Positions 10,741 through 43,477 of a DNA stretch of 64,000 nucleotides are shown here, one piece after another. Origin of the DNA: Patescibacteria group bacterium (GTDB lineage: Bacteria > Patescibacteriota > Minisyncoccia > Phycocordibacterales > WO2-35-19); contig JBBTQO010000001.1 in assembly GCA_038065655.1 (NCBI GenBank), positions 2,517 to 66,516 of the forward strand, in the 5' to 3' direction. Below the pieces are notes generated by a model. That model made no database searches. It was not told the origin of the DNA and was given only the letters and a program-made list of their open reading frames with translations. The position numbers were made by a program, and so were the translations under genes. The first letter of the stretch is position 1; every line of letters starts with the position of its first letter.

Positions 10741-10774
10741 GGAAGGTCGCATCATACCACTAAACTATACCCGC
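10741..10774 (-). repeat. 34-nt duplicated copy of the tRNA-Gly 5' half (positions 1-34); direct repeat with 10359-10392
   Basis: Exact match GCGGGTATAGTTTAGTGGTATGATGCGACCTTCC then divergence. Supplies the last four codons (AGIV) and the stop of cysS. Lacks the T-arm and 3' half, so not a functional tRNA. Confidence 0.8.
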
Positions 10775-12154: not shown

Positions 12155-12169
12155 CAGAATTTAAATTAG

Positions 12170-13072: not shown

Positions 13073-13117
13073 TTTATTTTTGATAAGGACTAAATATATG
13101 ATATATTATAACAGAAA

Positions 13118-14329: not shown

Positions 14330-14408
14330 CTCCCCCCAACCCCCCTCTTACATTAAGAGGGGGGCTTTCCGAACCCTCTCTTGTTGTAAGAGAGGGCAGG
14401 GTGAGTTA
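14330..14408. repeat. ~80-bp MITE-like element, copy 2 (TIRs aactcccc / agggtgagtt; two internal hairpins)
   Basis: Hairpins cccccctctta...taagagggggg (14340-14364) and ccctctc...gagaggg (14374-14396) separated by ctttccgaac. The right terminus agggtgagtt is the exact reverse complement of the copy-1 left terminus aactcaccct. Confidence 0.6.
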
Positions 14409-14418
14409 TGATATGTTT

Positions 14419-14862
14419 ATGAAAGTAATTCTTAAAGAGAACATAAAAGGAGTAGGGCATAAATATGAAATAAAAGATGTATCTGATGGTTATGCCAACA
14501 ATTTTCTGATACCAAAAAAACTAGCTGAGTATGCCAGTCCAGATGCTGTCAAAAAAGCTGAAATTTTGAAATCAGCAAACGAAGCGGAAATTGAAATAAG
14601 AGAAAAATTAACTGAAAAACAGATAGAGATGCTAAAAGGAGTAACAGTTGTTTTAAAAAAGAAAGGCAACGAAAAAGGACATTTATTTGAAAAAATTCAT
14701 CCAGAAGAAATATCGGCTGTTTTAAAAGAACAGGCAAAAATAGAAATTGATTCAGAATTTATTATTCTTGAAAATCCTATTAAGGAAATAGGGGAGCACA
14801 CAATAGCTGTTAAGGTGGGCAAGAGTAAGGGAGAATTTAAATTAAAAATAGAGCTAATCTAA
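14419..14862 (+). CDS. rplI: 50S ribosomal protein L9
   Basis: N-terminus MKVILKENIKGVGHKYEIKDVSDGYANNFLIPKKLA is canonical L9; the ORF finder extended to 14401; ATG at 14419 chosen. Confidence 0.85.
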   Translation: MKVILKENIKGVGHKYEIKDVSDGYANNFLIPKKLAEYASPDAVKKAEILKSANEAEIEIREKLTEKQIEMLKGVTVVLKKKGNEKGHLFEKIHPEEISAVLKEQAKIEIDSEFIILENPIKEIGEHTIAVKVGKSKGEFKLKIELI

Positions 14863-14871
14863 AAACTCTTT

Positions 14872-14980
14872 CTCGTCATAAGTTTTGAAAAGCACGCATA
14901 ATTTTCTGCTGAAAATTTGCTCACGCTCGCCTCAGTCAGTCTGCGCGAGTCTTTTCAAAACTTACGACCACGACGAGTTT
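14872..14980. terminator. Bidirectional structured terminator between convergent rplI and rpmA
   Basis: Long imperfect stem ctcgtcataagttttgaaaag ... cttttcaaaacttacgaccacgacgag enclosing smaller hairpins (aattttc-tgctg-gaaaatt), followed by TTTTTT. Confidence 0.5.
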
Positions 14981-14981
14981 T

Positions 14982-15254
14982 TTAAACTACAGTGGCGATT
15001 TTTTTGACAATAGTGGAGCCGTCAAAGTGGACTTTTCTTTTGGAAGCCATTTTGACTTTGCCGTCTTTGAGAGCAAAAAGAGTATAATCTCTGCCCATAC
15101 CGACACCATTGCCGGGTAGGATGTTTGAACCTCTTTGACGCACCAAAATACAGCCCGTATTGCAGGAGCTTCCGTCTGAGAGCTTAATTCCTAGAAATTT
15201 TGGGTTGGAATCTCTCCCGTTTTTAGTTGTACCGGCGGCTTTTTTATGTGCCAT
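14982..15254 (-). CDS. rpmA: 50S ribosomal protein L27
   Basis: [24 protein letters not shown]... canonical L27 N-terminus. Confidence 0.9.
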
Positions 15255-15283
15255 ATAAAGAGTATAATAGATAATAATCTAAA

Positions 15284-15724
15284 ATGCAAGATGACAAAAA
15301 AATAGAAGAATATATAGAAGAAGAGGATTTTGAGAATAAAGGGGGTAGGGGATGGAAAGGAAAATTTATAGATTTTATTGGGGGAAAATATTTTGTGCCA
15401 ATTACTATCGTTTTAGTAGCTATAATAGCTTTTTCTTTAGGGAGAATCTCGGGATTACAGGAAAAAAGGGAGCCGGTGAGGGTTTTAAATAACACAGTTT
15501 CTGTGGAAAACCCAACATCCAATGTTGGGCAAACGGCAGCGGTTGGTGCAAGTAATGCTAGTGGAGGATCAGTGGTGGCGTCAAAAAATGGTACTAAATA
15601 TCATTATCCTTGGTGTGCCGGCGCTAAACAAATATCAGCCAAAAATTTGGTTACTTTTGATTCTATTGAAAAAGCTCGCACCGCTGGCTACACTCCAGCT
15701 AGTAATTGTAAGGGACTCAAATAA
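15284..15724 (+). CDS. Membrane-anchored protein with C-terminal Ada-like metal-binding domain
   Basis: 146 aa; TM helix (ITIVLVAIIAFSLG); C-terminal KYHYPWCAGAKQISAKNLVTFDSIEKARTAGYTPASNC resembles the Zn-binding N-terminal domain of Ada (..CRPSC...NV.F.S...A...GFRPC..). Confidence 0.4.
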   Translation: MQDDKKIEEYIEEEDFENKGGRGWKGKFIDFIGGKYFVPITIVLVAIIAFSLGRISGLQEKREPVRVLNNTVSVENPTSNVGQTAAVGASNASGGSVVASKNGTKYHYPWCAGAKQISAKNLVTFDSIEKARTAGYTPASNCKGLK

Positions 15725-16077
15725 TAGAGAGAGGTAATAAATGGCTTAAATAAAGGGGATTTGGTAGAATTTTAGAAATAAATTTGACCACATTTTCTCC
15801 TTGACAGCAAGGTTTAAAAATGCTACACTATACGTAAGTCCAGTAAATGCTGGATTTTGTCGTTATAGGGATGTTCTTTGGCTCAGGCAACAATTTTAGG
15901 TTCGCGCTTGAGGTTTATCTGATTTGCATCTCTATCCAGCCCTAACTTCCTTAGTTATTAAATTAATTCTTAATAGGAATAAGAATTAATGAAATAGGCT
16001 AGGGGGGTTATAATCTAAAAAATGAGTTAGAGCTGGAATTAAAATTAAACAATAGGCTTATTTTTCAGACTACTGCT

Positions 16078-16554
16078 TTGGGGTTTATAATGATAGCTTC
16101 AAATATTACTGGTTTTGGTGGGGCATCGTTTGTGCCAAACACCTTACCACCAGAAGTTATAAAAATTAAAGAAACTCTTCCAAGTGACAATAAAAAAATT
16201 GTAACTAAGAAGAATATAACCGTCGAAGAGTATGTGAGAAATTATTTCTCAGACATACCAGTTTTGGTTGAAATCGCTAGATGCGAATCTCGTTTTCGTC
16301 AACATGATAAAGAGGGAGGAGTTTTGCGTGGTGAAGAGAATAATCTTGATCGTGGAGTTATGCAGATCAATGAATACTATCACAACGAAAATTCTGACAA
16401 ACTTGGATATGACATCCTTACTCTAGAAGGGAACACCGCCTACGCTAGACACCTTTTTGAAAAGTATGGTGTCAAGCCTTGGAAGTCCTCTATCAGGTGT
16501 TGGGGGGGGACTGTTGCCTACTCTGAATATAAAGACCTGGCGGTTAACAAGTAA
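16078..16554 (+). CDS. Lytic transglycosylase-like (SLT/lysozyme-like domain) protein
   Basis: 158 aa; IARCESRFRQ (candidate catalytic Glu-Ser), GVMQINEYYH, AYARHLFEKYG motifs reminiscent of SLT-domain transglycosylases. Confidence 0.5.
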   Translation: MGFIMIASNITGFGGASFVPNTLPPEVIKIKETLPSDNKKIVTKKNITVEEYVRNYFSDIPVLVEIARCESRFRQHDKEGGVLRGEENNLDRGVMQINEYYHNENSDKLGYDILTLEGNTAYARHLFEKYGVKPWKSSIRCWGGTVAYSEYKDLAVNK

Positions 16555-16571
16555 AATTAAAAAAGGAAAAA

Positions 16572-16600
16572 TAGCTCCTCCAAACGGGGGAGCTGTTTTT
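16572..16600 (+). terminator. Rho-independent terminator after the transglycosylase-like gene
   Basis: agctcc-tccaaacggg-ggagct hairpin followed by TTTTTC. Confidence 0.5.
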
Positions 16601-16668
16601 CTTAGTAAAAGCCAAAGGGCACCTTCTGGGACCGGGGCATTCTGAAGGTGCCCTTTGGCTTTTACTAA
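16600..16668. repeat. 26-bp perfect inverted repeat (REP family-1 doublet) with 17-nt spacer
   Basis: cttagtaaaagccaaagggcaccttc / gaaggtgccctttggcttttactaag; arms contain the gggcaccttctg core of the RAYT-associated hairpin at 2645-3368. Confidence 0.7.
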
Positions 16669-16776
16669 GAGATGGTAGGAACGTCGCACAATATATCTTC
16701 GCGACTCAACCAAAGGTTGGGTCGCGAAAGATAACGCCCATTTTTAGAATAAAATAATTATATTAAAAATATTCCC

Positions 16777-17037
16777 CTACTTTAACTTGGCTATGAGATT
16801 TTTTGCAAATTCAGAAACGTAATTCCAGACCCTGATTATGGCCCCGTTGTATTTTTCCCAGCCTTGAGAGCCCAGGCTGTAAAATTGATCCAAGAGCTCC
16901 TTAAATCGGCCTTGGGTCAAGAAACCCACAACATCTATGTTGTATACATATTTTAGAAGCACTAATGCGCCGATAATTATAATAATTATTTGGATAAAAC
17001 CAGTTTTTTTAGGAGATTTTATTTTTTTGTTTTTCAT
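16777..17037 (-). CDS. Small hypothetical membrane protein
   Basis: 86 aa, one TM helix (IQIIIIIIGALVLL); no recognisable family. Confidence 0.3.
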   Translation of the reverse strand: MKNKKIKSPKKTGFIQIIIIIIGALVLLKYVYNIDVVGFLTQGRFKELLDQFYSLGSQGWEKYNGAIIRVWNYVSEFAKNLIAKLK

Positions 17038-17064
17038 ATAATTTTAGATATGATTTTTAATTTA

Positions 17065-18363
17065 TTAAAAGTATAACATAGGGTCTAAGTAAGCATTGAT
17101 ACCTGATACCGGGATACTTACATTTTTACAATTAATACTAGAAGAATATTTTTGGATTTGAACTCCTTGACTAGCGTAAAGAGTAAGATGAAGATGAGGT
17201 CCGGTTGAATAGCCAGTTTGGCCGCTGTAACCAATCACCTCTCCGGTTACAACTTTTTGGCCAGCTACTACCTTAATTAAATCAAGATGACCGTAAAGAG
17301 TTGATAAACCATTTGGATGCTCTACTAAAACCCATTTACCATATGAATAGCACCCTTTTTGTTCGTCTGTGTTGCCGGTGCCAATTACGGTTCCATTAAG
17401 AGCTGCTTTAACTGGAGTGCCACGACTCGCTCTAAAATCAATTCCATTGTGAGTACCTGATGTGTAGAGGCGTTTAGCATCAATTGTTTTACCAAAATAT
17501 TGAGTGATAAAGACATTGTCCAATGGCCACGAAAGGATACCTTTACCAGAAGAAGGATAGCTATTTGGGTCAATGGCTCTTTTGAGTTGAGATTCAAATA
17601 AGAAAAGTTCTTTCTCAAATCTCTCCTTTTCCGCTTGCCTATCGGTTAACATTTTTTTGTATTCCGTCTCTTTATTTTTGGTAGTGGTTAACAGAGTACT
17701 TTTTTCTTTTTTATTTACATCTAAAATTTTGTTTTGGTCACCAAGCTCTGATTTAAAAAAAACTAATTTGTTTTTTTCTGTTTCGCTGACAGCTTTTTTA
17801 TTAAATAATTCATTTCTATAAATTTCAAGCTCTTTTGATTGGGCCCTTACTTTTTGCTGAAATTGGCCGATTGATTCATATTCATCTAAAACATCAGCTA
17901 AACTCTTGTTGGTTAAAAAACTTTCAATAAGTGATTCATCATCTTTTTGTCGCATATCGCCTAGAATTTTTGAGATAGCTAAAACATTAGATTCTATTTT
18001 TTTTTCCATGTCCCCTATTTCGCTACCGAGATTTTTAATGGTCAGGTTAGTTTTTTGGATATTAGTTTCGGTTTTCTTTATTTCTGTACCAATTTTTTGT
18101 TTGTTGATGTCAAGAACTTTTATAGCATTCTGTAGAGTTTTAGTCTCTCCGCCAACAACCTCAATTTGTTTTTCATAAACTTTTATTTCTGCGTCAAGTT
18201 GTTTAATTTTATCATTGTGACCTTCGATATTTTGTTTTATTTGGTCTACCGATTGAGCATTAGCATAATATCCTATGATAATAATAAATCCGATAAGTCC
18301 CACAAGACAAATTTGACTTATAAGTTTAATGTGGTTTATTTTTTTAAAGTGTTTGTATGGCAT
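17065..18363 (-). CDS. M23 family metallopeptidase with N-terminal coiled-coil (EnvC-like murein hydrolase/activator)
   Basis: 432 aa; TM anchor; ~250 aa coiled-coil; C-terminal M23 motifs HNGIDFRASRGTPV and GYSGQTGYSTGPHLHLTLY. Confidence 0.8.
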   Translation of the reverse strand: MPYKHFKKINHIKLISQICLVGLIGFIIIIGYYANAQSVDQIKQNIEGHNDKIKQLDAEIKVYEKQIEVVGGETKTLQNAIKVLDINKQKIGTEIKKTETNIQKTNLTIKNLGSEIGDMEKKIESNVLAISKILGDMRQKDDESLIESFLTNKSLADVLDEYESIGQFQQKVRAQSKELEIYRNELFNKKAVSETEKNKLVFFKSELGDQNKILDVNKKEKSTLLTTTKNKETEYKKMLTDRQAEKERFEKELFLFESQLKRAIDPNSYPSSGKGILSWPLDNVFITQYFGKTIDAKRLYTSGTHNGIDFRASRGTPVKAALNGTVIGTGNTDEQKGCYSYGKWVLVEHPNGLSTLYGHLDLIKVVAGQKVVTGEVIGYSGQTGYSTGPHLHLTLYASQGVQIQKYSSSINCKNVSIPVSGINAYLDPMLYF

Positions 18364-19705
18364 TTTTAATTCTATTTATTACTTCTGGTATGCCAAGTAT
18401 TTCAATAAGTGTAAATGGATCTGGCGACTTTTCTCTGCCTGATAGGGCATAGCGTAATGGCCAAAGTACCTCCCCTTTCCCTTCTTTTTCCGCCAACTTC
18501 CAAATTTCTTCTTTTATTTTTTCATAATCTTTCTCATCCATAATACTTAATACTTCTTCCGTAATACTTTTAGCCTTTTCTTTGCCTTCTCCTTTCCAGC
18601 ATATCTTGTTAGTCTCTAAAACTGGTTTTTCAAAAAAATAATCGTATTCTCCCATTTCTACTAATTCTTTTACCTCTCCCCATCTATGAATCTTGTCCAA
18701 AAATAGTTTTAGAAGTTTTTGCATAAATACCTCATCTTTTGTTTTTTCACTACCTCCCCATTTAGTTTTTGAAAATTCTGAATTAAAATTTTCAAATTTC
18801 TCTTTATCTGAAAGATGAAGAATATATTCACGGTTTAACCAATCGAGTTTCTCTACATTAAAAATTGCTCCCTTTTTTTGAACTTTTTTAATATCAAATA
18901 TTTTGATGAGTTCTGTCATACTAAATATTTCCTGGTCTATCCCCGGATTCCAGCCAACCATAGCCAAAAAATTTTTAATCGCTTCTGGCAAATATCCTTT
19001 TTCTCGATAATAAGAAACCGAAACTTGTTCGCCGTGCTTCCTTTTTGAAAGTTTTGTTTTGTCCGGCGCTAATATTAATGGCAAGTGGGCATAAATTGGT
19101 CGAGGAGCGCCAATTGCTTCTTGGATAAGGATTTGTCTAGGAGTATTGGAAATGCCATCATCGCCTCTGATAACATAATTTACCCCCATTTCAAAATCAT
19201 CTATGACCACTGCTAAGTGATATACGGGCTCTTCTAAACTTTTGGCAATAACAAAATCCTTGAGTTCGGTAGTATCAAACTCAATATCACCCCTTATAAG
19301 ATCATTAAATACTATTTTTTTGTTTGGATTTCTAAATCTAATAACTTGCCCCGAGCTTGTCGAATAGGCTTCATCATTTTCATCTTTTCTCTCTTCGGCT
19401 AAATAAGCTTTATCTTCGCTTATTAGTTTCTCCAAGTATTTTTTATAAATTTCGCTTCTTTCAGATTGCTTAACAGTTGTAGCAAAATCTGGCTCGATAC
19501 CAAGCCATTTTAAATTTTCTATTATATCGTTCGCATATTCCTTCTTAGATCTTTCTTTATCGGTGTCTTCTAGTCTAAAAACTATTTGGCCGTCATTCTG
19601 TTTGGCAAAAAGATAGTTGAAAAGAAAGGTTCTAGCGTTACCGATATGAAATAGCCCGGTTGGACTTGGTGGAAATCGTACCACCACTTTTTCTTTGTTT
19701 TCCAT
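18344..19705 (-). CDS. gltX: Glutamate--tRNA ligase
   Basis: 453 aa; class I motifs RFPPSPTGLFHIGNARTFLFN (HIGH) and KLSKRK (KMSKS). Confidence 0.85.
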   Translation of the reverse strand: MENKEKVVVRFPPSPTGLFHIGNARTFLFNYLFAKQNDGQIVFRLEDTDKERSKKEYANDIIENLKWLGIEPDFATTVKQSERSEIYKKYLEKLISEDKAYLAEERKDENDEAYSTSSGQVIRFRNPNKKIVFNDLIRGDIEFDTTELKDFVIAKSLEEPVYHLAVVIDDFEMGVNYVIRGDDGISNTPRQILIQEAIGAPRPIYAHLPLILAPDKTKLSKRKHGEQVSVSYYREKGYLPEAIKNFLAMVGWNPGIDQEIFSMTELIKIFDIKKVQKKGAIFNVEKLDWLNREYILHLSDKEKFENFNSEFSKTKWGGSEKTKDEVFMQKLLKLFLDKIHRWGEVKELVEMGEYDYFFEKPVLETNKICWKGEGKEKAKSITEEVLSIMDEKDYEKIKEEIWKLAEKEGKGEVLWPLRYALSGREKSPDPFTLIEILGIPEVINRIKNAIQTL

Positions 19706-19775
19706 AGGGCTATTATAACAGAAAATCGAATTCTGAGGATGGATAATTAAAAATCAAAATAGCTAAGATAATATA

Positions 19776-20909
19776 TTATCCTAAATTCTCGTGAGAAAGA
19801 ACGATGGAAAGTAGTTCGTGGGCGATGGTATCACTGGCACCGGGCTTGAAGAAATTTTTAGCTCCTTCTATCATTTTTCCACTGATTTCTTTACTTTCTA
19901 TTATTCTTTTTATTTCAGTCAACAAGATGTTTGGTTTCAGATTTTCTTCTTGAATAACAGAACAAGCTCCAATCTTGGCATAGGTAAAAGCATTTTTCAC
20001 TTGATGATTTCCGTTAGAATTGGTAATCGGAATTATGATGGCAGGTTTGCCCCAAGAAGCAATTTCAAATATAGTCGAACCGGCCCTGCTAATAATTAGA
20101 TTTGCTACACCGGCGGCCATTCTCATTTCAAGACCATTTAGATAAGCAAAAGGTTTATATCTAGCTCTGTGCTGATTTTCTAAAAGTATGGCGGCGGCCG
20201 ACTCTTTCATTATTTCAATATTAGCCTGGCCCGTTTGATGTATTATTTGAAAACTTTTAACTAAGTCTGGTAGGATATCTAAAATGGCATTATTAATAAA
20301 TTCGGCGCCTTGAGATCCGCCCATAATAAATAAAGTAGGAATAGTTTGATTAAAGCCAAAAAATTCAGTGGCGCTATTGGTAATAGGGGTAAGTCGTTCT
20401 TCTAAAATTGGTTGACCGGTATGAATAGTTCTGTCTTCCTTAAAAAAGGGAAAGGCTTCTTTGTAGGAAATTCCAACTCTAGTGGCAAATTTACCGGCCC
20501 ATTTGTTGGCTTTACCGGGAACAGAATCTGATTCATGTATGAATACGGGAATACGCAAAATGCGAGCGGCTAAAACAGTCGGGAAACTACCAAAACCTCC
20601 TTTGCTAAATACCACATCAGGATAGATGTCAAAAACATCTAAAAGAGCGCCAATCACCCCCCAAGCAGTTTTAAACAGATCAAAAAAATTTAAAATAGAA
20701 AAATATCTACGGATTTTGCCGGCAGTCACTTTTTTAAATTTGATATTGTGGTCGTAAAGCAGACCCTGATTATATGGAGCGGGTGCAAAAAAATACATTT
20801 CTGGCGTTATCAGTTTTTTTTCTTTAGCTATTTTTTGGATTGATTCAATAATAGCAATAATCGGATAAAAATGTCCGCCTGTTCCCCCGCCTGTAAAAAT
20901 TATTTTCAT
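19776..20909 (-). CDS. murG: UDP-N-acetylglucosamine--N-acetylmuramyl-(pentapeptide) pyrophosphoryl-undecaprenol GlcNAc transferase
   Basis: 377 aa; MKIIFTGGGTGGHFYP N-terminal glycine-rich motif and GT28 C-terminal domain. Confidence 0.85.
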   Translation of the reverse strand: MKIIFTGGGTGGHFYPIIAIIESIQKIAKEKKLITPEMYFFAPAPYNQGLLYDHNIKFKKVTAGKIRRYFSILNFFDLFKTAWGVIGALLDVFDIYPDVVFSKGGFGSFPTVLAARILRIPVFIHESDSVPGKANKWAGKFATRVGISYKEAFPFFKEDRTIHTGQPILEERLTPITNSATEFFGFNQTIPTLFIMGGSQGAEFINNAILDILPDLVKSFQIIHQTGQANIEIMKESAAAILLENQHRARYKPFAYLNGLEMRMAAGVANLIISRAGSTIFEIASWGKPAIIIPITNSNGNHQVKNAFTYAKIGACSVIQEENLKPNILLTEIKRIIESKEISGKMIEGAKNFFKPGASDTIAHELLSIVLSHENLG

Positions 20910-20945
20910 ATTGTTAAAATTTTCAATTTTAAATTAAAAATTCTG

Positions 20946-22055
20946 CTACCCCTTTGACCTTGCATATCTAGATATATTCATTACTATTCCGACTTCGACT
21001 AAAGTAATGAAAAGAGCGGTTCCACCGTGACTAACAAAGGGCAGGGGTATGCCAGTCAAGGGTAAAACGCCAATCATCCCACCTATATTTACAAAAGCCT
21101 GAGACACTATCATTATAACAATTCCCAGGGCCAAGAGTCTACCAAAATGGTCATTAGAATTTGAAGCTATTTTTAGACCTTCCAAACCAAACATTATGAA
21201 GAGAGCAATAATAATAAAGGCGCCAACAAAACCAAACTCTTCGGCGGCTACTGCAAAAACCGAATCCCCCACTGGTTCTGGCAGGTAGCGAAACTTCTGA
21301 ATACTTTGGCCAAATCCCCTACCCCAAATCTGACCAGAACCGACGGCGATAAGTGATTGATTGAGTTGATAACCACTAGTTTGATTGTTGGCCGATGGGT
21401 CGAGCATCACTTGGATTCTTTGTTTTATGTAAGGTCTGGTGAAATAAAGGATCACTAAAATGGCCGCACCGGCAACTAGTATTGTTAAGATATGACGCCA
21501 TTTAGCGCCAGAGGCAATATACATTGATAAAGCAGCAAAAAGAATTACCGCAAAAGTATCTGTATCTGGTTGAGCCAACAAAATTACTCCGAGTATTCCA
21601 ATGAATATTCCGAAAGGCAAAAGTCCCCAAGAAAAAGTGCCCACTTTATTTTTGATTCCAGAAAGCCAAGCGGCAAAATAGGCAATAAAGGCAATTTTTA
21701 AAATTTCAGCGGGCTGAAAAGAAATAAAACCTAAATTAATCCAACGCTTAGCGCCACCGTGCTCTATCCCAATACCGGGCACAAAAACCAAAAGAGTTAA
21801 AACAATAGCACCTATCAAAAAAACAAAAGAATATTTTTTCCAAACGTGGTAATCAATTTTGGCAAAAATAAGACAAGCAATCGAACCCAAAAATAATCCG
21901 TAGAAAATTTGATTGAAAGCGACATTGGAAAATTTGACTTCGTCTCTCGCTAAAACTCCGAGTGAGGCAGAACTAAAAATAAAAAAACCAATCACAATCA
22001 AAGTGATTGTCCACGCTAAAAAAGGTCGACTTATTTTCCCGAGTCTGGTTGCCAT
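20946..22055 (-). CDS. ftsW: SEDS family peptidoglycan polymerase FtsW/RodA
   Basis: 369 aa; ~10 TM helices; conserved SEDS region LPEPVGDSVFAV and GGTALF. Confidence 0.8.
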   Translation of the reverse strand: MATRLGKISRPFLAWTITLIVIGFFIFSSASLGVLARDEVKFSNVAFNQIFYGLFLGSIACLIFAKIDYHVWKKYSFVFLIGAIVLTLLVFVPGIGIEHGGAKRWINLGFISFQPAEILKIAFIAYFAAWLSGIKNKVGTFSWGLLPFGIFIGILGVILLAQPDTDTFAVILFAALSMYIASGAKWRHILTILVAGAAILVILYFTRPYIKQRIQVMLDPSANNQTSGYQLNQSLIAVGSGQIWGRGFGQSIQKFRYLPEPVGDSVFAVAAEEFGFVGAFIIIALFIMFGLEGLKIASNSNDHFGRLLALGIVIMIVSQAFVNIGGMIGVLPLTGIPLPFVSHGGTALFITLVEVGIVMNISRYARSKG

Positions 22056-35776: not shown

Positions 35777-38700
35777 TTAAAATTCTTTATAATTTGGGTC
35801 AACGGCAAAGTTGGCAATGACGGTTTTGTTACCAGACATATTGATGGTGCAAGAAATGTTTCTGCCGCATGATGTGCCATCTCCTCCCCAACCGGTAAAT
35901 ATTCTTCCACTCACTATCTGGGCAGTAAGTATAACATCATCACCTTCATCATAAGTCCAACAATTTGGAATATCGGGGATCCCAGTTGGATTACGGCTGA
36001 CTGTTCCCTGTCCTGATTTTACAATACACAGATTATAATCAGATCCTATTGGTGGGGCGACATTTACTGTGACACTGTCGGAAACCGGTCCGGGGTTGCA
36101 GGAGAGAGTATAAGTTTTTGATGCTGTTAAGTTGCCAGTAGATTGAGTGCCGGAAAGACCGGTCCAGCCAGTTGGAGAAACAGAACAAGAAGTAGCGTTA
36201 GTTGATGACCAAGTAATATTTGTAGCTGTATTATACGGAATATTTGTAGAATCAGCGCTTATGTTGGCAGTAGTTGAAACGGGCAGAGGACACTGAGCGC
36301 TGACACCATAAAACATAGCTGGGTTAGATTGGTTGTTGTATTCGGTCGCTATCCATTGTGCGGAGCGGATGCTGTTAGACAACCTAAACTCATCTAGTTT
36401 ACCGTTAAATGCTCTATCATTTAAACTCCTATTTCCGATCGTTAAAGTTGCAGATCCAGTTTGTAAGGTTCCAGATGGAGCGGTAACTTCCGTAACTGAT
36501 TGAGCCACACCATCTAGATAATAAATAGGATCATTTGAAATTGAACTCCCATTATAGGTAATAGCAATGTGATGCCAGGCCCCTGTACTTGGAGTAGGTA
36601 TTCTCCAAGCTGCAGCTCCAGACCAGCCAACCTGAAATTGCAATAAATTTGTTGAGTCAATAAATAACTGGTCTTTTAAGTTGCCATGTTCCCAAAACCT
36701 TCGGGCTGATGCATCAATAGCATTAACAAAAAACCAAGTTTCCCATGTTCTCTGTGCAGTAGCAGTGATAGTAGATGTAATCTTGTGCATATTGGTACTG
36801 CCACCAAAACTGGCTGAGCCGTCTATTTTCCCAGTAGTAGCTGACGCTCCGGAAATCGTCCCATTTTTATTATTGATAGTAGAATCAAGAGCAGATAATG
36901 TTGAGCCATTTGGATAATGATAAACTGCGGCATAATTACTATCCCAAGTCCCGGCAACATTTTGCTGATTTATTGCGCTGGGGTTACCATAATACATATA
37001 TATTTTTGTGTCCGCTGTACTGGAAAGACTTGGTACTTTTACCCAAGCAATGAGTTCGCCTGTCCCAGAAACATATTTTTCTATTTCGTGATCAAGTTTT
37101 GTTCCACTTGAGTTAGTAAATAAAATATCAAAACCATCTGGCCGAGCGTTGGCTTGCAATCCAGCATCAGAAGTTAGAGAAATCATAACAGGAAAGTTTG
37201 ATTGGGTAGCTGGGACTTTTGCGTCATCAATCTGGAAAATCTTACGATAACCCCAAATTCCACCAGTTGAATACCAAGGAGTCGCATCGGTACAAGAAGG
37301 ATTTACAACTCCTCCCCCAGCCGCACTCACAGTCACTGTTGTCCAAGCACTACAGTTATTCCCCTCATTTGATTCGGTGATAGTTCCAACCATTGAAGCA
37401 TTATTATCTGCGCATACTTGTACAGAATATGTTCCCGCCGAGGGGAATGTGTAAGAAGAAGATATGACAGTTCCAGAAGCACCCGCATTAAGAGCGCCTA
37501 GTTGAGTAACTGAAATTGTAGAAACTGTTCCAGTTCCACCTGCACCAGTTGCTACTCGGAAAAAATTGTTGAATGAAGCACCGGTAGCTGCTGTTCCGCT
37601 GTTTGTGATTGTAGATGAAAATGCTTGTGGTGTCCCGGCTGTTGCGGCAGTTGGAGTTATAACGCCTGGGGTTAGGTCTGGGGAGGAAGTATTTACACAA
37701 TCAATCTGACCTCCTATTGGATCACTCCATGAGTAAGGTGATGATGTGAGTTTTGTTTGAACTCCCCAGTAATATGATATACCAGCCGTTGTAAGAAAAT
37801 TTGTTTTTGCTGTCCCAACAAAATTATTATCCCATGCAGTAGATCCAGTAAGAGATGTCCAAGCTGGAAGTTCATACAACCTCGTATAAAAAGTACCCCA
37901 ACTGCTTATACCACCAACGCTTTGAGTTGGGGCTATCCATGAAAATGAACCGAGGTTGCCCGGACTTGGACAGGAACCTGAGCCATTGGTGGGTGGAGGT
38001 GGAATATTTATGATGACAGAATTAGATGCCGTATCTCCACTTGAACTCGTACAAGATAATGTATAAACCAGACTTGTGGTATTTAGAGGATAAGTATACG
38101 TATCTACAGTACCTCCAGATACACTTACTGGTGAACCATTCAATGTACAAGAAGATGCATTACCCACAGCACCCCATGTTATTTTATATGGAGCTTGACC
38201 ATAAGCCCAAAGTGGCCCATCACCAGTTTGGCTACCAAAAATAACCGATCTTCCGCCATCATTCCAAATAGTTGCCTTTACATCTACTCCGGTGGGAGGA
38301 GAGGGTGGTTCACAATTGTAAGTATCAGTATAAGAACCACCAGGTTTATAATACTCGCAATACACACCAGTTGGTTCTTGGAAAAGACATCCAGGTTGAG
38401 TACCTACAAATTCTGGAGCACAAGAAGAAGGAGATACAGTTCTTTTTGACCCAGTAATTTTCGTCTCAGAGCAAGAGTATGTCCTCTGGCACCACCCTCC
38501 ACCAATAGGTTTATCTTCTACTAAAGTTATTACACCCCCATTTGCGGTGGATTTACAACCCATAAGTTCTGGAAGACAATATGTTCCGCCACCAGTATCA
38601 GTAGTGCCTGCGGCACAATAATCCAGCGATGTATTATAGGTAGTCCCAACATTATGCTTAAAAGGATAATTTGTGCATATTACACCAATTGGTGGATATG

Positions 38701-38971
38701 TTGAAGGAGTACAAGAATATTCACTACCAGGAACGATTAAAGGACAAAATGATTGACAATTCGTCATATCATTAAACCATGCTTTACCTTCATAAACTGA
38801 AAATGGAGAATTCACATAAGCTGGCATATTTTCATAAGATGTGACGGTTACACCCTGAGAAGCGTTACATTGAGCGGCTGCATCTACACTAGAAGTCGGC
38901 AGAAAAACAAAAAATAAAAGTATAAAAATGAATAGAAAGTGATTTAAATTTATTTTTTTTAGGTAATTCAT
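35777..38971 (-). CDS. Giant secreted cell-surface protein with Cys-rich N-terminal region, Ig-like/Thr-rich repeats, DUF2341-like and LamG/concanavalin-like domains
   Basis: 1064 aa; signal peptide; DUF2341-like segment (GGIWGYRKIFQIDDAKVPATQSNFPVMISL...KIYMYYGN); LamG-like segment (..WHHIAITYNGSS...LDGV...GKLDEFRLSN). Confidence 0.6.
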   Translation of the reverse strand: MNYLKKINLNHFLFIFILLFFVFLPTSSVDAAAQCNASQGVTVTSYENMPAYVNSPFSVYEGKAWFNDMTNCQSFCPLIVPGSEYSCTPSTYPPIGVICTNYPFKHNVGTTYNTSLDYCAAGTTDTGGGTYCLPELMGCKSTANGGVITLVEDKPIGGGWCQRTYSCSETKITGSKRTVSPSSCAPEFVGTQPGCLFQEPTGVYCEYYKPGGSYTDTYNCEPPSPPTGVDVKATIWNDGGRSVIFGSQTGDGPLWAYGQAPYKITWGAVGNASSCTLNGSPVSVSGGTVDTYTYPLNTTSLVYTLSCTSSSGDTASNSVIINIPPPPTNGSGSCPSPGNLGSFSWIAPTQSVGGISSWGTFYTRLYELPAWTSLTGSTAWDNNFVGTAKTNFLTTAGISYYWGVQTKLTSSPYSWSDPIGGQIDCVNTSSPDLTPGVITPTAATAGTPQAFSSTITNSGTAATGASFNNFFRVATGAGGTGTVSTISVTQLGALNAGASGTVISSSYTFPSAGTYSVQVCADNNASMVGTITESNEGNNCSAWTTVTVSAAGGGVVNPSCTDATPWYSTGGIWGYRKIFQIDDAKVPATQSNFPVMISLTSDAGLQANARPDGFDILFTNSSGTKLDHEIEKYVSGTGELIAWVKVPSLSSTADTKIYMYYGNPSAINQQNVAGTWDSNYAAVYHYPNGSTLSALDSTINNKNGTISGASATTGKIDGSASFGGSTNMHKITSTITATAQRTWETWFFVNAIDASARRFWEHGNLKDQLFIDSTNLLQFQVGWSGAAAWRIPTPSTGAWHHIAITYNGSSISNDPIYYLDGVAQSVTEVTAPSGTLQTGSATLTIGNRSLNDRAFNGKLDEFRLSNSIRSAQWIATEYNNQSNPAMFYGVSAQCPLPVSTTANISADSTNIPYNTATNITWSSTNATSCSVSPTGWTGLSGTQSTGNLTASKTYTLSCNPGPVSDSVTVNVAPPIGSDYNLCIVKSGQGTVSRNPTGIPDIPNCWTYDEGDDVILTAQIVSGRIFTGWGGDGTSCGRNISCTINMSGNKTVIANFAVDPNYKEF

Positions 38972-38978
38972 ATAAATT

Positions 38979-39458
38979 TTATTTTTGGCTAAAGTGAACT
39001 TGAACTTCTACTTTTTTGCTTTGAGAATTTTCAGTTATAAATATATTTAATGTTGTATTATTTTTTTGTCCTGTGAGAGACATTACTTTGGGAACTACCT
39101 CCATTACAAATGGATTCCAGCCACCTGTCTCCATATATGTCCTGAATGTGTCCACATTCTCATTAAAAGAAAAAGGACTATCCCAAACCAAAGTATATTC
39201 TAAATAGCCATTTATTTCCCTCTGAAATTCTTGCGTTGGAGTAGCGCCATTTACAGGCAAAGGAAAATCACTCGGCACAAGCTCTTTTTTAGATTCAGTG
39301 GTATTTAGAGAATACACTGGCACTTGGGGCTTTTGATTTTTATATTTATTTAACCAAAAAAGTGATAAAAATCCCACAACTAATATCATGAAAATAACAA
39401 TTATCCAAACAAACTTTCTTTTTTTTTGGGTCTCTTCCATTGTATTTGAAAATAACAC
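38979..39458 (-). CDS. Hypothetical membrane-anchored protein
   Basis: 159 aa; one N-terminal TM helix; no motif. Confidence 0.35.
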   Translation of the reverse strand: MLFSNTMEETQKKRKFVWIIVIFMILVVGFLSLFWLNKYKNQKPQVPVYSLNTTESKKELVPSDFPLPVNGATPTQEFQREINGYLEYTLVWDSPFSFNENVDTFRTYMETGGWNPFVMEVVPKVMSLTGQKNNTTLNIFITENSQSKKVEVQVHFSQK

Positions 39459-39545
39459 TAAATAATTGTCTATATTATATCATTTTTTCATTATGCAAAT
39501 ACTAATCTGTTTATAAAAACTGTGCATAAGGTTTTTAAAGTTTAG

Positions 39546-39586
39546 GTATGAAAAAAGCCGTCCCGCGCGAACGCGAAACGGCTTTG
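39546..39586 (-). terminator. GC-rich rho-independent terminator of the GC-rich foreign ORF
   Basis: Minus strand: AAAGCCGtttcgcgttcgcgcgggaCGGCTTT followed by TTTTTC; a second hairpin gcgaccCGGAggtcgc lies at 39595-39610. Confidence 0.6.
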
Positions 39587-39615
39587 ATTTGTTGCGACCC
39601 GGAGGTCGCTGTGTG

Positions 39616-40458
39616 CTATTTAGAGAAGAGGCGCCTGTACTGGGCTTGGAGGGAAGCATTTGCGTCAACCTCCCCATTTGGTCCAATCACTGGGACTTCC
39701 CCACCGAGCAATGGAACAACGCACGACACCCCATGTTTGTCCGACAGGTGAACGAATAGGGGTTCCCCGACCAGAAAAGCACTCATAGGAACTTCAATCT
39801 TTTCGACTGAGTAATCCCCGGAATAGACCTTCTGAAAGGTTGCTTCGTTCCCACTGTTATCCTGAACGAGTTGGAATACGACAGCTTGCGTGGGTCCATT
39901 TCCACCAATCTCGACGGATAGTTTGTTGTCGCTTGAGCTCTTACTCAACACGACAGCCCCCAATTCAGCAAACACAGGGAGTTCGTCTGGTACTCCCACT
40001 ACCAGTAGCGGAACCTCCGAGTGTAGAACCACACTGGAACAGGTTTTACTTGTTCTACTGGTGAGGTTTTCTGCCACCACCATATAGAGACCGGGCTGGA
40101 CCCCATTGAGCCAGAGACCATGGAAACTGTAGAGATGCCGTTGCGCTTGGAATCTCCCGGCAAACCCTGAAGACACCATATTCCCGAGTTGGAGTTTTCC
40201 TGTGCCATTCCCCACCTGCATCATGTACCACAGCCCGTCGTATTTGATGGCGTGGTACAACTGAAAAGTTGCCTCATATTCACTGACACAGGTCGGACTG
40301 ACCTGGATGACCCCGAGATCAATCCCATCATTAGTCTTGGTCAACGTCAGAGCGACGCTGGCCACCTGTTGTTCTGGCACGACCTGTGCCGGAATCACCA
40401 TCATGCTCATGCTCGACAAGAGCACGAGCAAAAACATTGAAAAGTACTTGCTGAGCAT
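39616..40458 (-). CDS. Secreted hypothetical protein encoded on a GC-rich (~50% GC) foreign cassette
   Basis: 280 aa; N-terminal signal peptide (MFLLVLLSSMSMMVIPA); codon usage and GC content strikingly different from the flanks (~35%); no recognisable family. Confidence 0.5.
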   Translation of the reverse strand: MLSKYFSMFLLVLLSSMSMMVIPAQVVPEQQVASVALTLTKTNDGIDLGVIQVSPTCVSEYEATFQLYHAIKYDGLWYMMQVGNGTGKLQLGNMVSSGFAGRFQAQRHLYSFHGLWLNGVQPGLYMVVAENLTSRTSKTCSSVVLHSEVPLLVVGVPDELPVFAELGAVVLSKSSSDNKLSVEIGGNGPTQAVVFQLVQDNSGNEATFQKVYSGDYSVEKIEVPMSAFLVGEPLFVHLSDKHGVSCVVPLLGGEVPVIGPNGEVDANASLQAQYRRLFSK

Positions 40459-40569
40459 GTTGATGCCCTCCTTTTGCTATTATACAGATAACCCCAATCT
40501 TGTCAAGGGGTCATATTATTTGTCAATATTTTAGGTCGTTGTGAATTTGATGGATTATTCAAGGTCTAT

Positions 40570-42369
40570 TTACATAAAACCACTCATTTGGAGGTCCCAC
40601 AACTTTTTATAAAGTCCACTTTCTTTGTTTGAAAGTTCATCATGAGTTCCGTCTTCAACGATTGAACCTTTGTCCATAGATATTATACGGTCCATTTTTT
40701 TGATGGTAGAAAGTCTGTGTGCGATGACGATGGTGGTGCAGTTTTCCATTAAGATTTTCAAAGCATCTTGAATGAGCGATTCGGAATAGGAATCTAAACT
40801 TGAAGTAGCTTCATCAAAAATTAGAATAGGAGCCTTTTTGAGGATTGCTCTGGCGATGGCTATCCGCTGGCGCTCTCCACCAGAAAGCTTAATTCCCCGC
40901 TCACCGACATACGTCTCATATTTCAAAGGTAAATTTTCGATAAATTCATCACAATGAGCGAGTCTGGAAGCCTCTTTGACTTCTTCGTCAGAAACATTTC
41001 GGCAACCATAACGGATATTTTCCAGTAGTGTTCGATGAAAAAGGACAGGATCTTGTGGCACGAAACTTATGTTTTCCCTTAAACTGTCTTGGGTGATAGT
41101 GCGGATATTTTGACCATCAATAATGATAGAGCCAGAGGTCAAATCATATAGGCGCATTATAAGTCTTACAAAAGTCGTTTTGCCTGAACCTGAGTGTCCC
41201 ACCAGCGCCACCTTTTCTCCACTCTTTATTGTTAGATTTATATTGTTTAATGTTTTATTTCCTTGATTGAATTCAAACGACACATTATCAAAAACTATTT
41301 CTCCCTTGGTTACAATTAATTTTTTTGCATTGGGCAAATCTTCTATATCGTGTTTGGTAATTAATATGTCAACCATTTCTTTGGAATCGGCCAAACTTTG
41401 AAAGATACTGCGAATAATTTTGTTTAGTCCCCAAAGTTGTTGAGATAGGCCGATTATGTAGGTTTGAGCCAATACAAAGGTTCCTATAGTGATTAATCCC
41501 CTTTCCCAATATTTTATAGCGTAATAAAACACGAAGAACTCTACCAAAAAAATGAGCAATACTTGTATTCCATCAACTAATTCGGCTAATCGCCAAGAAA
41601 ATAGGGTTTTTCTAGCCTGTTCGTTAGAAATTTTTTGGAAACCCTTAGATTCGTGTTTGTGTCCTGTAAAAAAGGATATGGCGTTGTTATTTGTGATTGA
41701 ATCTGCCAAATAACCAGTAGTGTGGGAATCAGCTTCAGCAGACAATTTGTCATATTTTAATTTCCATGTTGAAAATGAAATACTAAATACTGATATGATA
41801 AATACCCATGAAATCATAATAATAGAAACTATTGGGGCGATGAAATACATTATCCATATTGAACCGACGACGGTTATAACAAGCGGTATGAGATTAAAAG
41901 CGAGACTATCGGCTAGAGATTCAAATGCACGACTGAATCGGTTTACTTTTTGGACCAACCCACCACTAAAATTGTTGGCAAAAAAAGTGTGAGAATGTCC
42001 CATCATATAATCAAAAGAGTTTTGCTTCAGTTTTGCCATTACCCGCGTTTCCATCATGTCAAAGAGAAACATTCCGACTCTAAAAAAGACCCAGTTAATA
42101 GCGTGGAAAATTAATATAAAAGTTACGATTTTAATAAGGGCAAGAGCGGTTTCGCTTGGGCTCACAGATTTGCTTATAACGTCAAAAAAATCTTTATAAT
42201 ATAAAGGGATAAATAAATTAATTAAATGGGCAACAAAAAATAAAAAATATGCACTAAAAAACAAGCCTTTGACTGACCTTACTCCTTTCCAAAACTGACT
42301 CATTATTTGGCCGACAGTTGTTTCTTTGGTTGGTTTGCTTTTGGTTTCTTCTCTACCAATGGTGTCCAT
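40570..42369 (-). CDS. ABC transporter, fused permease/ATPase (type I exporter, MsbA/multidrug-like)
   Basis: 599 aa; 6 TM helices; Walker A GHSGSGKTT, signature LSGGERQRIAIARA, Walker B ILIFDEATS. Confidence 0.85.
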   Translation of the reverse strand: MDTIGREETKSKPTKETTVGQIMSQFWKGVRSVKGLFFSAYFLFFVAHLINLFIPLYYKDFFDVISKSVSPSETALALIKIVTFILIFHAINWVFFRVGMFLFDMMETRVMAKLKQNSFDYMMGHSHTFFANNFSGGLVQKVNRFSRAFESLADSLAFNLIPLVITVVGSIWIMYFIAPIVSIIMISWVFIISVFSISFSTWKLKYDKLSAEADSHTTGYLADSITNNNAISFFTGHKHESKGFQKISNEQARKTLFSWRLAELVDGIQVLLIFLVEFFVFYYAIKYWERGLITIGTFVLAQTYIIGLSQQLWGLNKIIRSIFQSLADSKEMVDILITKHDIEDLPNAKKLIVTKGEIVFDNVSFEFNQGNKTLNNINLTIKSGEKVALVGHSGSGKTTFVRLIMRLYDLTSGSIIIDGQNIRTITQDSLRENISFVPQDPVLFHRTLLENIRYGCRNVSDEEVKEASRLAHCDEFIENLPLKYETYVGERGIKLSGGERQRIAIARAILKKAPILIFDEATSSLDSYSESLIQDALKILMENCTTIVIAHRLSTIKKMDRIISMDKGSIVEDGTHDELSNKESGLYKKLWDLQMSGFM

Positions 42370-42466: not shown

Positions 42467-43477
42467 ATGAAAAAGAAAAAAGAGTCATTAGTCTTGGGGC
42501 GTATGTTGCAAAAAATCGCGTCTCGCATTGGGGCAACTATCATTTTGGAACCTGAATGGGGTATTGTTGGCCAAATTACCTTCAAGAGTGGCCGCTTTTC
42601 CTATTTCAGGTATAACACTGTGGATTTGAATCCAATGGGAGCTTCGGAAATTGCAAAGGATAAAGACTATGCCAACTTCTTTATGAAGCGCATGGGCTAC
42701 CCCATTGTTCCGGGCAGTAAGACATTTTTTTCGGATTCATGGGGTAAGGCTATCGGAGCATCTCATCGCAACACCCTTGCTGCTTATCGGTATGCTCAAA
42801 CGCTGGGCCTGCCGGTTATTGTAAAGCCAAACAGCGGTAGTCAAGGAAGAGGGGTCACTCTCGTTCATAACAAACGCGAATTCTACCGAGCAATGCGCAC
42901 AGTCTTTGAGATTGATCGCGTCGCTTTGGTCCAACAGCCTGTGCATGGCAAGGATTATAGAATAGTCGTTTTAGACGAAAGAGTGATTTCAGCTTACGAG
43001 CGGATACCACTCAATGTTATTGGCAACGGGAGGTCAACGATAAGTAATTTGCTCAAAAAGAAGCAGCAAGAATTCGTTGCTTCAAGCCGTGACACCAATA
43101 TCAAGAAGAATGACCCTCGCATAACTGAGAAGCTGAAGCATCAAGGGTTAAATCTTCAGTCAGTTTTGGCTCAAGGGGAGAGGGTTTTTCTTCTTGATAA
43201 TGCCAATCTGTCTGCTGGTGGAGATTCGGCAGATGTCACAGCAAACATGCACCCAACCTTTGGTAAGATTGCCATAAAGCTGACCAAAGATATGGGGCTT
43301 CGTTTGTGTGGGGTTGATCTTATGATTGATGGCGACATCAGCCAAAAATCATCACCTTTTTGGGTCCTTGAGATTAATTCTGCACCTGGTCTTGATCACT
43401 ATTCAAGGTCCGGTAAGGCGCAGGAGAAAATTGTTGAGGATTTATATCTCGAAGTACTGAAAAGTATGGAGAGATAA
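42467..43477 (+). CDS. Standalone ATP-grasp ligase resembling the ATP-grasp (G) domain of cyanophycin synthetase CphA
   Basis: 336 aa; motifs IVKPNSGSQGRGV, DYRIVVLDERVISAYERIPLNVIGNGRSTI, DNANLSAGGDSADVT, VLEINSAPG. From memory these align with the CphA ATP-grasp core (..VIGDGRSTI.., ..ANLSTGG.., ..EVNAAPG..); also RimK/CofF-like. Confidence 0.65.
   Translation: MKKKKESLVLGRMLQKIASRIGATIILEPEWGIVGQITFKSGRFSYFRYNTVDLNPMGASEIAKDKDYANFFMKRMGYPIVPGSKTFFSDSWGKAIGASHRNTLAAYRYAQTLGLPVIVKPNSGSQGRGVTLVHNKREFYRAMRTVFEIDRVALVQQPVHGKDYRIVVLDERVISAYERIPLNVIGNGRSTISNLLKKKQQEFVASSRDTNIKKNDPRITEKLKHQGLNLQSVLAQGERVFLLDNANLSAGGDSADVTANMHPTFGKIAIKLTKDMGLRLCGVDLMIDGDISQKSSPFWVLEINSAPGLDHYSRSGKAQEKIVEDLYLEVLKSMER

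Follow-up and report, generated by a model that had tools for sequence, protein, structure and literature searches.

The Patescibacteria are thought to live attached to host cells, and their surface and host-contact machinery is largely uncharacterized. In Gram-positive bacteria, the genes of surface (S-) layer and other major surface proteins are known for very strong promoters, for long-lived and structured mRNAs, and for rapid allelic divergence; we know of no S-layer gene that forms a GC island. Single-gene GC spikes in AT-rich genomes are usually dismissed as the product of recent transfer. A well described GC-rich surface-protein locus is vls of Borrelia, with 49.1% GC vs. approximately 28.6%, and with a coding-strand GC skew of 0.52, for which the high GC content was read as selectively maintained (PMC11499132). 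In this study, we analyzed a 64-kb stretch of a Patescibacteria metagenome-assembled genome (contig JBBTQO010000001.1, assembly GCA_038065655.1; the whole 64,000-nucleotide (nt) stretch is hereafter the window), in which one GC-rich gene, at 39616-40458 on the minus strand, encodes a 280-amino-acid (aa) secreted protein (NCBI MEK7669001.1, locus tag AAB350_00200). We refer to both the gene and its product as FAM. The GC spike proved to be a property of a whole small family, recurring at the same gene in each of the seven loci that carry it. We lean, with somewhat less than even confidence, towards the reading that FAM is native to a restricted lineage, that selection keeps its mRNA GC-rich and structured, and that it encodes a hypervariable, probably highly expressed secreted protein with tandem immunoglobulin (Ig)-like domains.

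With a GC content of 0.512, and of 0.584 at third codon positions (GC3), the FAM coding sequence (CDS) stands far above the window, which has a mean GC of 0.374 (sd 0.032, 843-bp windows, of which the highest outside FAM reaches 0.458) and a GC3 background of approximately 0.31. The GC3 of 27 comparison open reading frames (ORFs) of the window ranges from 0.25 to 0.45, or from 0.25 to 0.40 without one ATP-grasp gene (0.451). In 300-bp sliding windows, GC rises from approximately 0.30 at 39300-39599 to 0.49–0.53 over 39500-40499 before returning to 0.36, and a maximum-likelihood fit with two change-points placed the island at 39555-40429 (0.527 vs. 0.360 elsewhere). The initial annotation of this DNA, made from the sequence alone, had reported a jump from about 35% to about 50% GC and had proposed sliding-window GC and tetranucleotide analyses; both single out the FAM block, where the tetranucleotide distance has its window maximum (z 5.1), and FAM together with its terminator is the strongest outlier of the window. 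Of the interval that had been described as GC-rich (39540-40565), the description holds for 39545-40458, i.e. the CDS plus the 3' untranslated region (UTR) and terminators (39545-39615, GC 0.577), and fails for the promoter and 5'UTR part at 40459-40565, the entire promoter and 5'UTR segment (40459-40569) having a GC of 0.351. The edges of the island match the transcript, with a GC-rich CDS and terminator and an AT-rich, genome-like promoter and 5'UTR. The gene orientation, which is the minus strand, also corrects the earlier description. Within FAM, codon positions 1 and 3 both show elevated GC, and the amino-acid composition is shifted as well.

An abrupt change in composition is, taken alone, what would be expected of an assembly chimera, in which a foreign 1-kb fragment was mis-joined into the contig, as the initial annotation had suggested. 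However, the exact 280-aa product was found with identical flanks on 18 contigs from several samples and assemblers (ENA, Logan, NCBI), and the fetched contigs match the window at 99.75–100% over up to 20.8 kb across both junctions, with the exception of one strain variant (L040); some of them span 20 kb at 99.995–100% identity. Both flanks derive from the same genome, and homologues in other assemblies show the same pattern. The source aquifer was sampled at Hainich well H41, which lies behind ERZ1292619 and ERR3858118, and in the SRR32696xxx runs. Since the gene and its flanks are identical on 18 independently assembled contigs, we excluded a chimera, the probability of which we regard as negligible.

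The family is rare and is confined to a few low-GC Patescibacteria contigs. An exhaustive phmmer search of 1.84 billion representatives returned four real homologues at 30–37% identity (P0002, P0003, P0004 and P0006), the contigs of which (L046, L047, L036 and L048) are all low-GC and Patescibacteria-like; two further matches (P0005, P0007) proved to be translated tandem repeats and were dropped. Searching via the small partner protein encoded next to FAM brought in L049 and L051, both full or near-full members, together with a fragment, L052, identical to that of L051. Seven FAM loci were thus counted: the window (= L037), L036, L046, L047, L048, L049 and L051. A word-indexed protein search returned the FAM query alone and its profile version added nothing, an exact DNA search of the GTDB genomes did not find the FAM gene, and scans of JGI metagenomes with the terminator pattern and the partner-protein profile were likewise empty. 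No FAM homologue was found outside the context of its gene module in 1.84 billion representatives, 5.8 billion clusters, or phage and viral collections. The gene order common to the loci is FAM, followed by a membrane protein of 152–162 aa and a giant adhesin-like protein. In all seven loci the FAM gene alone is GC-rich (GC 0.51–0.58, GC3 0.58–0.67; immediate neighbors GC3 0.20–0.34), and because FAM is the sole GC-rich gene of the three in the module, these did not come in together as GC-rich DNA. Moreover, the high GC persists in every member at a divergence where synonymous sites are saturated and a neutral foreign composition would have drifted to that of the host; it therefore appears to be actively maintained.

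These observations bear on the origin that the initial annotation had preferred, i.e. the recent horizontal acquisition of a cassette of about 1 kb, not yet ameliorated, whose donor (a host bacterium or a phage, for instance) had a higher GC content. FAM is a strong outlier in GC, GC3 and tetranucleotide use, it has its own promoter and terminator in the manner of phage "morons", it is missing downstream of the orthologous ATP-binding cassette (ABC) gene in 30 related loci (where the downstream order is not conserved at such distance), and the two closest relatives hold other, non-homologous GC-rich secreted-protein genes at that position, hinting at an insertion-prone spot. All of this would suit recent import, but diverged low-GC genomes carry this family too, GC spike and partner genes included, and GC3 shows no amelioration (0.58–0.67 in 7/7 loci) despite protein identities of 24–37%. 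The GC-matched genomes, phage and plasmid-like sources searched held no homologue. The block ends at the start codon, next to a promoter that is native-like and conserved, and insertion signatures were not found: around FAM there were no flanking direct repeats beyond chance, and no tRNA, integrase or transposase. Recent acquisition is contradicted by this recurrence in the same context, and we now hold it to be very unlikely. Low-GC relatives that carry the protein with the same local composition, a finding that the initial annotation had set against import, do exist, although they are rare rather than widespread.

The elements of the FAM cassette, all within 39551-40506 of the window, are as follows.

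39616-40458, minus strand: FAM CDS, encoding a signal peptide and two predicted Ig/fibronectin type III (FnIII)-like beta-sandwich domains, with conserved C57 and C140
40479-40506, minus strand: sigma-70 promoter of FAM, TTGACA, 16 nt, TATAAT, a perfect match to consensus
40466-40473, minus strand: Shine-Dalgarno sequence AAGGAGGG, 7 nt before the ATG at 40458, read from the sequence
40404-40430, minus strand: RNA hairpin of 11 bp at CDS nt +29 to +55, where the signal peptide is encoded
39594-39609, minus strand: first 3'UTR hairpin, GCGACC-UCCG-GGUCGC, downstream of the stop codon
39551-39585, minus strand: intrinsic terminator with a 14-bp GC-rich stem, a UUCG tetraloop and a U6 tail

Selection on the transcript was assessed by comparing the predicted minimum free energy (MFE) of each CDS with that of synonymous-codon shuffles preserving both the protein and the codon usage, in six family members. 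With whole-gene shuffles, their z values were -2.7, -6.0, -5.8, -4.8, -3.2 and -5.9 (seven control genes, -3.1 to +0.25), and with shuffles confined to 40-codon blocks they were -1.2, -5.1, -4.6, -2.0, -2.5 and -6.6 (10 control segments, mean about -0.25, range -2.6 to +2.5). Per nt, the MFE of the family (-0.36 to -0.46) is about twice that of ordinary genes (-0.18 to -0.26). In addition, the 11-bp hairpin in the signal-peptide-coding region is kept in the six full-length members, with 95.5% of cells paired and three pairs showing compensatory double changes; among 500 shuffles, only six do as well, and pairing in slid controls is 27–57%. Taken together, the structure excess and the covarying hairpin are suggestive of selection on the transcript. 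We also observed nucleotide-level conservation of the start-codon region AUGCUCAGCAAG (40427-40458, minus strand) among the window, L036 and L047; this region is complementary to the 3' arm of the hairpin, CUUGU(C/U)GAGCAU. The 3' arm could pair alternately with the 5' arm or with the initiation region, and so act as a translational switch.

Codon use in the family follows a dialect of its own, in which the five members tabulated prefer GGG, CTC, GTC/GTG and CAG and avoid TTA and ATA; TCG is preferred in four of the five, the exception being the copy in the window. Both G and C at third positions (G3, C3) are raised in FAM, vs. C3 only in the ribosomal-protein and DnaK genes of the window. As these highly expressed housekeeping genes raise C3 alone, ordinary translational selection is not the explanation, and codon bias of this kind was rejected.

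Expression signals of unusual strength surround the CDS. The perfect TTGACA-N16-18-TATAAT arrangement occurs once in the 64-kb window, where 0.04 would be expected, and the promoters of the homologous genes are perfect in L047 and L051 and match at 11 of 12 positions in L036, L046 and L048, with a layout common to family members of cTTGACAa, 16 nt, TATAAT/TATAGT/TATACT, and then AAGGAGGGCA. A second TTGACA lies 20 nt upstream of the -35 hexamer, which is itself bracketed by an inverted repeat, GACCCC...GGGGTT (40486-40530, minus strand); a near-identical arrangement is present in L047, and a longer inverted repeat, GGGTTGACCCTGTGATAC...GTATCACAGGGTTGAC, occupies the same place in L051. These elements may constitute an operator or a tandem promoter. 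The string AAGGAGGGCA-N-ATG is kept in L046, L047 and L048, and L036 has AGGAG. The NCBI annotation starts FAM at Met8 (273 aa; 40438-40458, minus strand); we favor the 280-aa start because the Shine-Dalgarno spacing and the MLSK N-terminus are conserved in homologues. In L051, the annotated start (MKGGDQM...) overlaps its own Shine-Dalgarno sequence, and the true start is probably Met7. At the other end of the gene, the two 3'UTR hairpins fold jointly at -34.8 kcal/mol (z -7.3 vs. shuffles). The initial annotation was right as to the existence of both; on the minus strand, they lie 3' of the stop codon. FAM is a self-contained transcription unit. The terminator stem is nearly identical in the window and L047, and L036 and L049 carry a compensatory C-G to U-A change, while L046, L048 and L051 have the same architecture with other stem sequences; because distant members use different stems, a covariation alignment of the terminator over all members was poor. 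Rfam covariance models gave no match at E <= 1 in 39300-40700. The FAM promoter, ribosome-binding site and terminator together make a candidate strong expression cassette for an uncultured lineage.

FAM appears to be exchanged between strains as well as being fast-evolving. Its proteins are pairwise 24–37% identical, L036 and L049 (80%) being the exception. Between the window and L036, identities were 52–74% for housekeeping proteins (a comparison that covers one relative, L036/L049), about 50% for the giant protein, 46% for the small partner and 26% for FAM; between the window and L047, they were 63% for both the small partner and the giant protein vs. 35% for FAM, despite which the promoter and terminator flanks of these two loci are nearly identical. 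By these identities, FAM evolves faster than anything else compared. The strain variant L040 (1-6212) is 100% identical to the window from 42439 through the ABC gene, FAM and both spacers, up to a breakpoint at window 39458-39460, beyond which identity is 81% in the small partner gene and 92% in the giant LamG gene, which then becomes unalignable; given the sharpness of this breakpoint, the pair of genes for the small and giant proteins is the strain-variable part. Between L036 and L049, the flanks are about 95% identical, the 5' two-thirds of FAM 62–68%, its 3' end of approximately 270 nt 100%, and the small partner gene 71%. Several short contigs start or stop in or next to the FAM gene, as expected at a strain-variable site. 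Such mosaics, as they appear in the alignments, indicate that FAM alleles are shuffled between strains by homologous recombination.

Recombination of this kind opens two further explanations for the maintenance of the high GC. One is GC-biased gene conversion, whereby G/C-biased heteroduplex repair at a recombination hotspot under diversifying selection raises GC at all codon positions. The direct mosaic recombination within the module would fit, and the shift of codon positions 1 and 3, of amino acids, and of both G3 and C3 looks general rather than translational; moreover, Lassalle et al. (2015, PMC4450053) reported a rise of bacterial GC3 associated with recombination, which counts in its favor. 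Yet the two partner genes show recombination signals of equal or greater strength and have an ordinary GC3 of 0.20–0.33, the sharp edges at the start codon and terminator are unexpected from conversion tracts, and both the arrangement-dependent excess of mRNA structure and the covarying hairpin would be left unexplained. The size of the effect (GC3 +0.27–0.45) is also, to our knowledge, far beyond what has been reported for gene conversion in bacteria. We therefore regard biased conversion as an unlikely explanation, albeit one to be reckoned with.

The other is that alleles have evolved in, and been re-imported repeatedly from, a GC-richer source that sampling has missed and that shares these flanks, be it a plasmid, a phage or a Patescibacteria lineage of higher GC; each import would then be relatively young. 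Cassette exchange by flanking homology would suit the far greater conservation of promoter and terminator than of the CDS between the window and L047, and breakpoints in and beside FAM, the many short contigs that break there, and a shared codon dialect, as from one compositional background, are all in keeping with it. However, a GC-matched context was seen in none of the seven loci, phage and viral collections gave no match, and the members rank by divergence in roughly the order of their low-GC partner genes, which is what evolution in place would give; such a reservoir would also need to carry the AT-rich, Patescibacteria-type promoter. Repeated import thus seems improbable to us.

A third alternative takes Borrelia vls literally, and would have the GC-rich DNA promote conversion from silent cassettes in a program of antigenic variation. 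FAM does share with vls a high GC that persists against an AT-rich genome, in a gene whose variable product is secreted or at the surface, with mosaicism at the strain level, but its coding-strand GC skew is 0.05–0.09, vs. 0.52 for vls, and G-quadruplex (G4) motifs are absent from it, its G-runs being what codon usage predicts. This makes programmed variation extremely unlikely. The more general idea of a role for G-quadruplexes or G-runs was likewise rejected, as there are no G4 motifs and the G-runs equal the codon-shuffle expectation. Extra full or partial FAM copies were not found by tblastn or blastn in the window or the fetched loci, and silent cassettes and internal repeats were rejected, none having been found in the same sequences. 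With regard to a diversity-generating retroelement, no second copy of any part of FAM is present in the window, and the reverse-transcriptase scan covered part of the large ORFs.

The protein itself has the features of a secreted, possibly surface-located component. The initial annotation had described a secreted protein without a recognized motif, and both parts of this were upheld. By inspection, MLSK is followed by FSMFLLVLLSSMSMMVI and then PA|Q, giving a 17-residue hydrophobic core and cleavage at IPA|Q, and the signal peptide is kept in the alignment of all full-length members; Pfam, PHROG, NCBIfam, PADLOC and a PDB sequence profile gave no match. The family alignment shows a signal peptide ending in A-Q, invariant C57 and C140, a VLVFQ motif and a C-terminal Y-x-x-x-F. 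From a single sequence, AlphaFold2 gave an unusable model (predicted local distance difference test (pLDDT) 39.5), whereas a five-sequence alignment yielded pLDDT 70 and a predicted template modeling (TM) score (pTM) of 0.69, with an N-terminal helix, a disordered linker, and two beta-sandwich domains of about 100 aa each, for which fold searches returned only generic tandem Ig/FnIII matches. At medium confidence, FAM is thus modeled as a Sec-secreted, tandem Ig/FnIII-like protein. The rate of nonsynonymous relative to synonymous substitution (dN/dS) between the alleles of L036 and L049 is 0.19, and FAM is therefore a genuine protein under purifying selection. Its genomic context points to a surface or host-contact role, so that the proposal of a host-interaction factor made in the initial annotation is still plausible, as FAM adjoins a giant adhesin-like protein in a strain-variable module. 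Neither the protein family nor the hairpin in its signal-peptide region is described in the libraries searched.

The remaining features of the module and its surroundings in the window are as follows.

38979-39458, minus strand: small membrane-anchored partner of 153–159 aa, with an N-terminal transmembrane helix and a domain of about 110 aa; GC3 0.27, genome-typical
35777-38971, minus strand: giant secreted surface protein of 1064 aa with CARDB, DUF2341 and LamG domains; GC3 0.26
39474-39530, minus strand: promoter-like region of the downstream two-gene operon, with the motif CTTATGCACAG at 39520-39530 and an extended -10 TGATATAAT at 39474-39482, read from the sequence
40570-42369, minus strand: ABC exporter (ABC_membrane and ABC_tran), directly upstream of FAM; context rather than conserved core

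Homologues of the small partner directly follow the FAM gene in every locus, and the position of the giant gene is held elsewhere by homologues with PA14, Flg_new_2 or LamG domains. The region at 39474-39530 probably acts as the promoter of the partner-gene operon, and since the partner genes have a conserved promoter-like region of their own, FAM is monocistronic. A non-coding motif, CTTATACACAGTTTT followed after approximately 40–45 nt by TGATACAAT, recurs in L036 (~11195-11260), L049, L050 (1-135), L051 (~6880-6950) and partly in L047, and could serve either as a binding site for a regulator or as a promoter of an unusual kind. The module is not tied to one chromosomal site. L036 (5840-15783) is syntenic with window 10760-22055 (CysS, CorA, S41 peptidase, L9 ... 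GltX, MurG, FtsW), with an insertion of about 9 kb between L27 and a 426-aa gene (vs. window 14862-17065) that holds FtsX, ABC and YknX genes plus the three-gene module; as the genomes are otherwise syntenic while the module is at another site, it relocates between genomes. Upstream of FAM, an efflux or ABC system is frequent among the loci; a MacB-type FtsX/ABC/YknX set is present in L036 and L046, and L051 has no such system.

Other GC-rich genes were noted in and around these genomes. Directly downstream of the closest orthologues of the ABC gene (80% and 78% identity) lie GC-rich genes (0.55 and 0.49) in L004 (9600-10776, minus strand) and L013 (11846-12661, minus strand), in convergent orientation, with beta-rich products non-homologous to FAM; the L013 product has a signal peptide, and the ORF in L004 is truncated where its contig stops. 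Further sporadic GC3-outlier genes, several of them secreted or lipoprotein-like, were seen in L006, L007, L014, L015 and L030. The second outlier of the window, at 42467-43477 (plus strand), encodes a 336-aa stand-alone ATP-grasp protein (GC 0.444, GC3 0.451) resembling the ATP-grasp domain of cyanophycin synthetase or GshAB. This gene is divergent from that of the ABC exporter and shows excess mRNA structure (z -4.8 with whole-gene and -3.2 with local shuffles); no ATP-grasp homologue adjoins the orthologous ABC gene in 30 related loci.

Returning to the reading of FAM as a native gene with a selected transcript, the following sequence of steps would account for the observations. FAM is a monocistronic cassette, in which a sigma-70 promoter and a Shine-Dalgarno sequence, both at consensus, precede the CDS and two terminator hairpins close it, and it heads a strain-variable surface module found in a few related low-GC Patescibacteria. 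Selection acting on the nucleic acid itself would favor a GC-rich, strongly folded mRNA that is long-lived and/or slowly translated, and that includes the conserved hairpin in the signal-peptide-coding region; in combination with maximal promoter and ribosome-binding-site strength, this structure would ensure that a surface or matrix protein is made in abundance and exported in an orderly way. High expression of FAM is suggested by its signals, and mRNA stability may be the selected trait. It is a tentative and somewhat doubtful extension of this proposal that the transcript itself is the selected object, holding one gene approximately 20 percentage points above an AT-rich, reduced genome across deep divergence. 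Several points weigh against the proposal. The window's own copy has the weakest structure excess, its z of -1.2 with local shuffles being inside the control range, and heterogeneous composition within a gene can inflate MFE z values, as one ordinary control gene reaches -2.6 to -3.1. The hairpin and family-wide statistics rest on six or seven sequences. FYMINK residues make up 22% of FAM vs. 33%, and a pervasive mutational or conversion bias would cause a like shift. Highly expressed housekeeping genes lack this solution, and high expression alone leaves the G-ending codons unexplained. Finally, the fold model is of medium confidence and its matches are generic.

If selection on the transcript does hold, a hyper-structured mRNA and its hairpin would determine how long a hypervariable, abundantly made surface protein of an episymbiont lasts, how fast it is translated or how its export is coupled, and FAM would be a natural case in which gene-specific selection for GC and mRNA structure overrides genome-wide AT mutation pressure and reshapes amino-acid usage. 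The family offers a natural test case for how local GC is maintained, by mRNA selection vs. biased gene conversion. It also draws attention to a secreted protein that had no annotation, is probably expressed at high levels and varies between strains, and whose partners in these Patescibacteria are giant adhesin-like proteins.

Several known systems share parts of this picture. Genomic islets and phage morons are likewise single genes of atypical composition between a strong promoter and a terminator of their own; in contrast to these, the FAM anomaly is conserved in diverged relatives together with gene order, its promoter is compositionally native, and no donor, prophage context or insertion scars were found for it. 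RbmA of Vibrio cholerae also combines a signal peptide with two beta-sandwich domains of about 100 aa, and RbmA chains were among the Foldseek matches, but the likeness is at the level of the fold only (TM 0.19–0.24, 12–14% identity, as for hundreds of Ig/FnIII proteins), with no sequence homology. FAM is like S-layer genes in being monocistronic, with maximal promoter and ribosome-binding-site strength, a strong terminator, a fast-evolving and exchanged secreted product, and evidence of selected mRNA structure; it differs in that the protein, at 280 aa, is much smaller, and in that no S-layer homology (SLH) or other anchoring domain was detected. Borrelia vls, like FAM, is a surface-protein locus far above an AT-rich background across strains and species, with a variable, poorly conserved sequence. 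It has GC skew, G-runs with G4 potential and arrays of silent cassettes, whereas FAM lacks such skew and G4 motifs, no silent copies of it were found, and its variation appears to arise by inter-strain homologous recombination, unlike the cassette conversion of vls. Judged by analogy among the known kinds, and even without their defining machinery, FAM most resembles persistently GC-rich surface-protein loci such as Borrelia vls.

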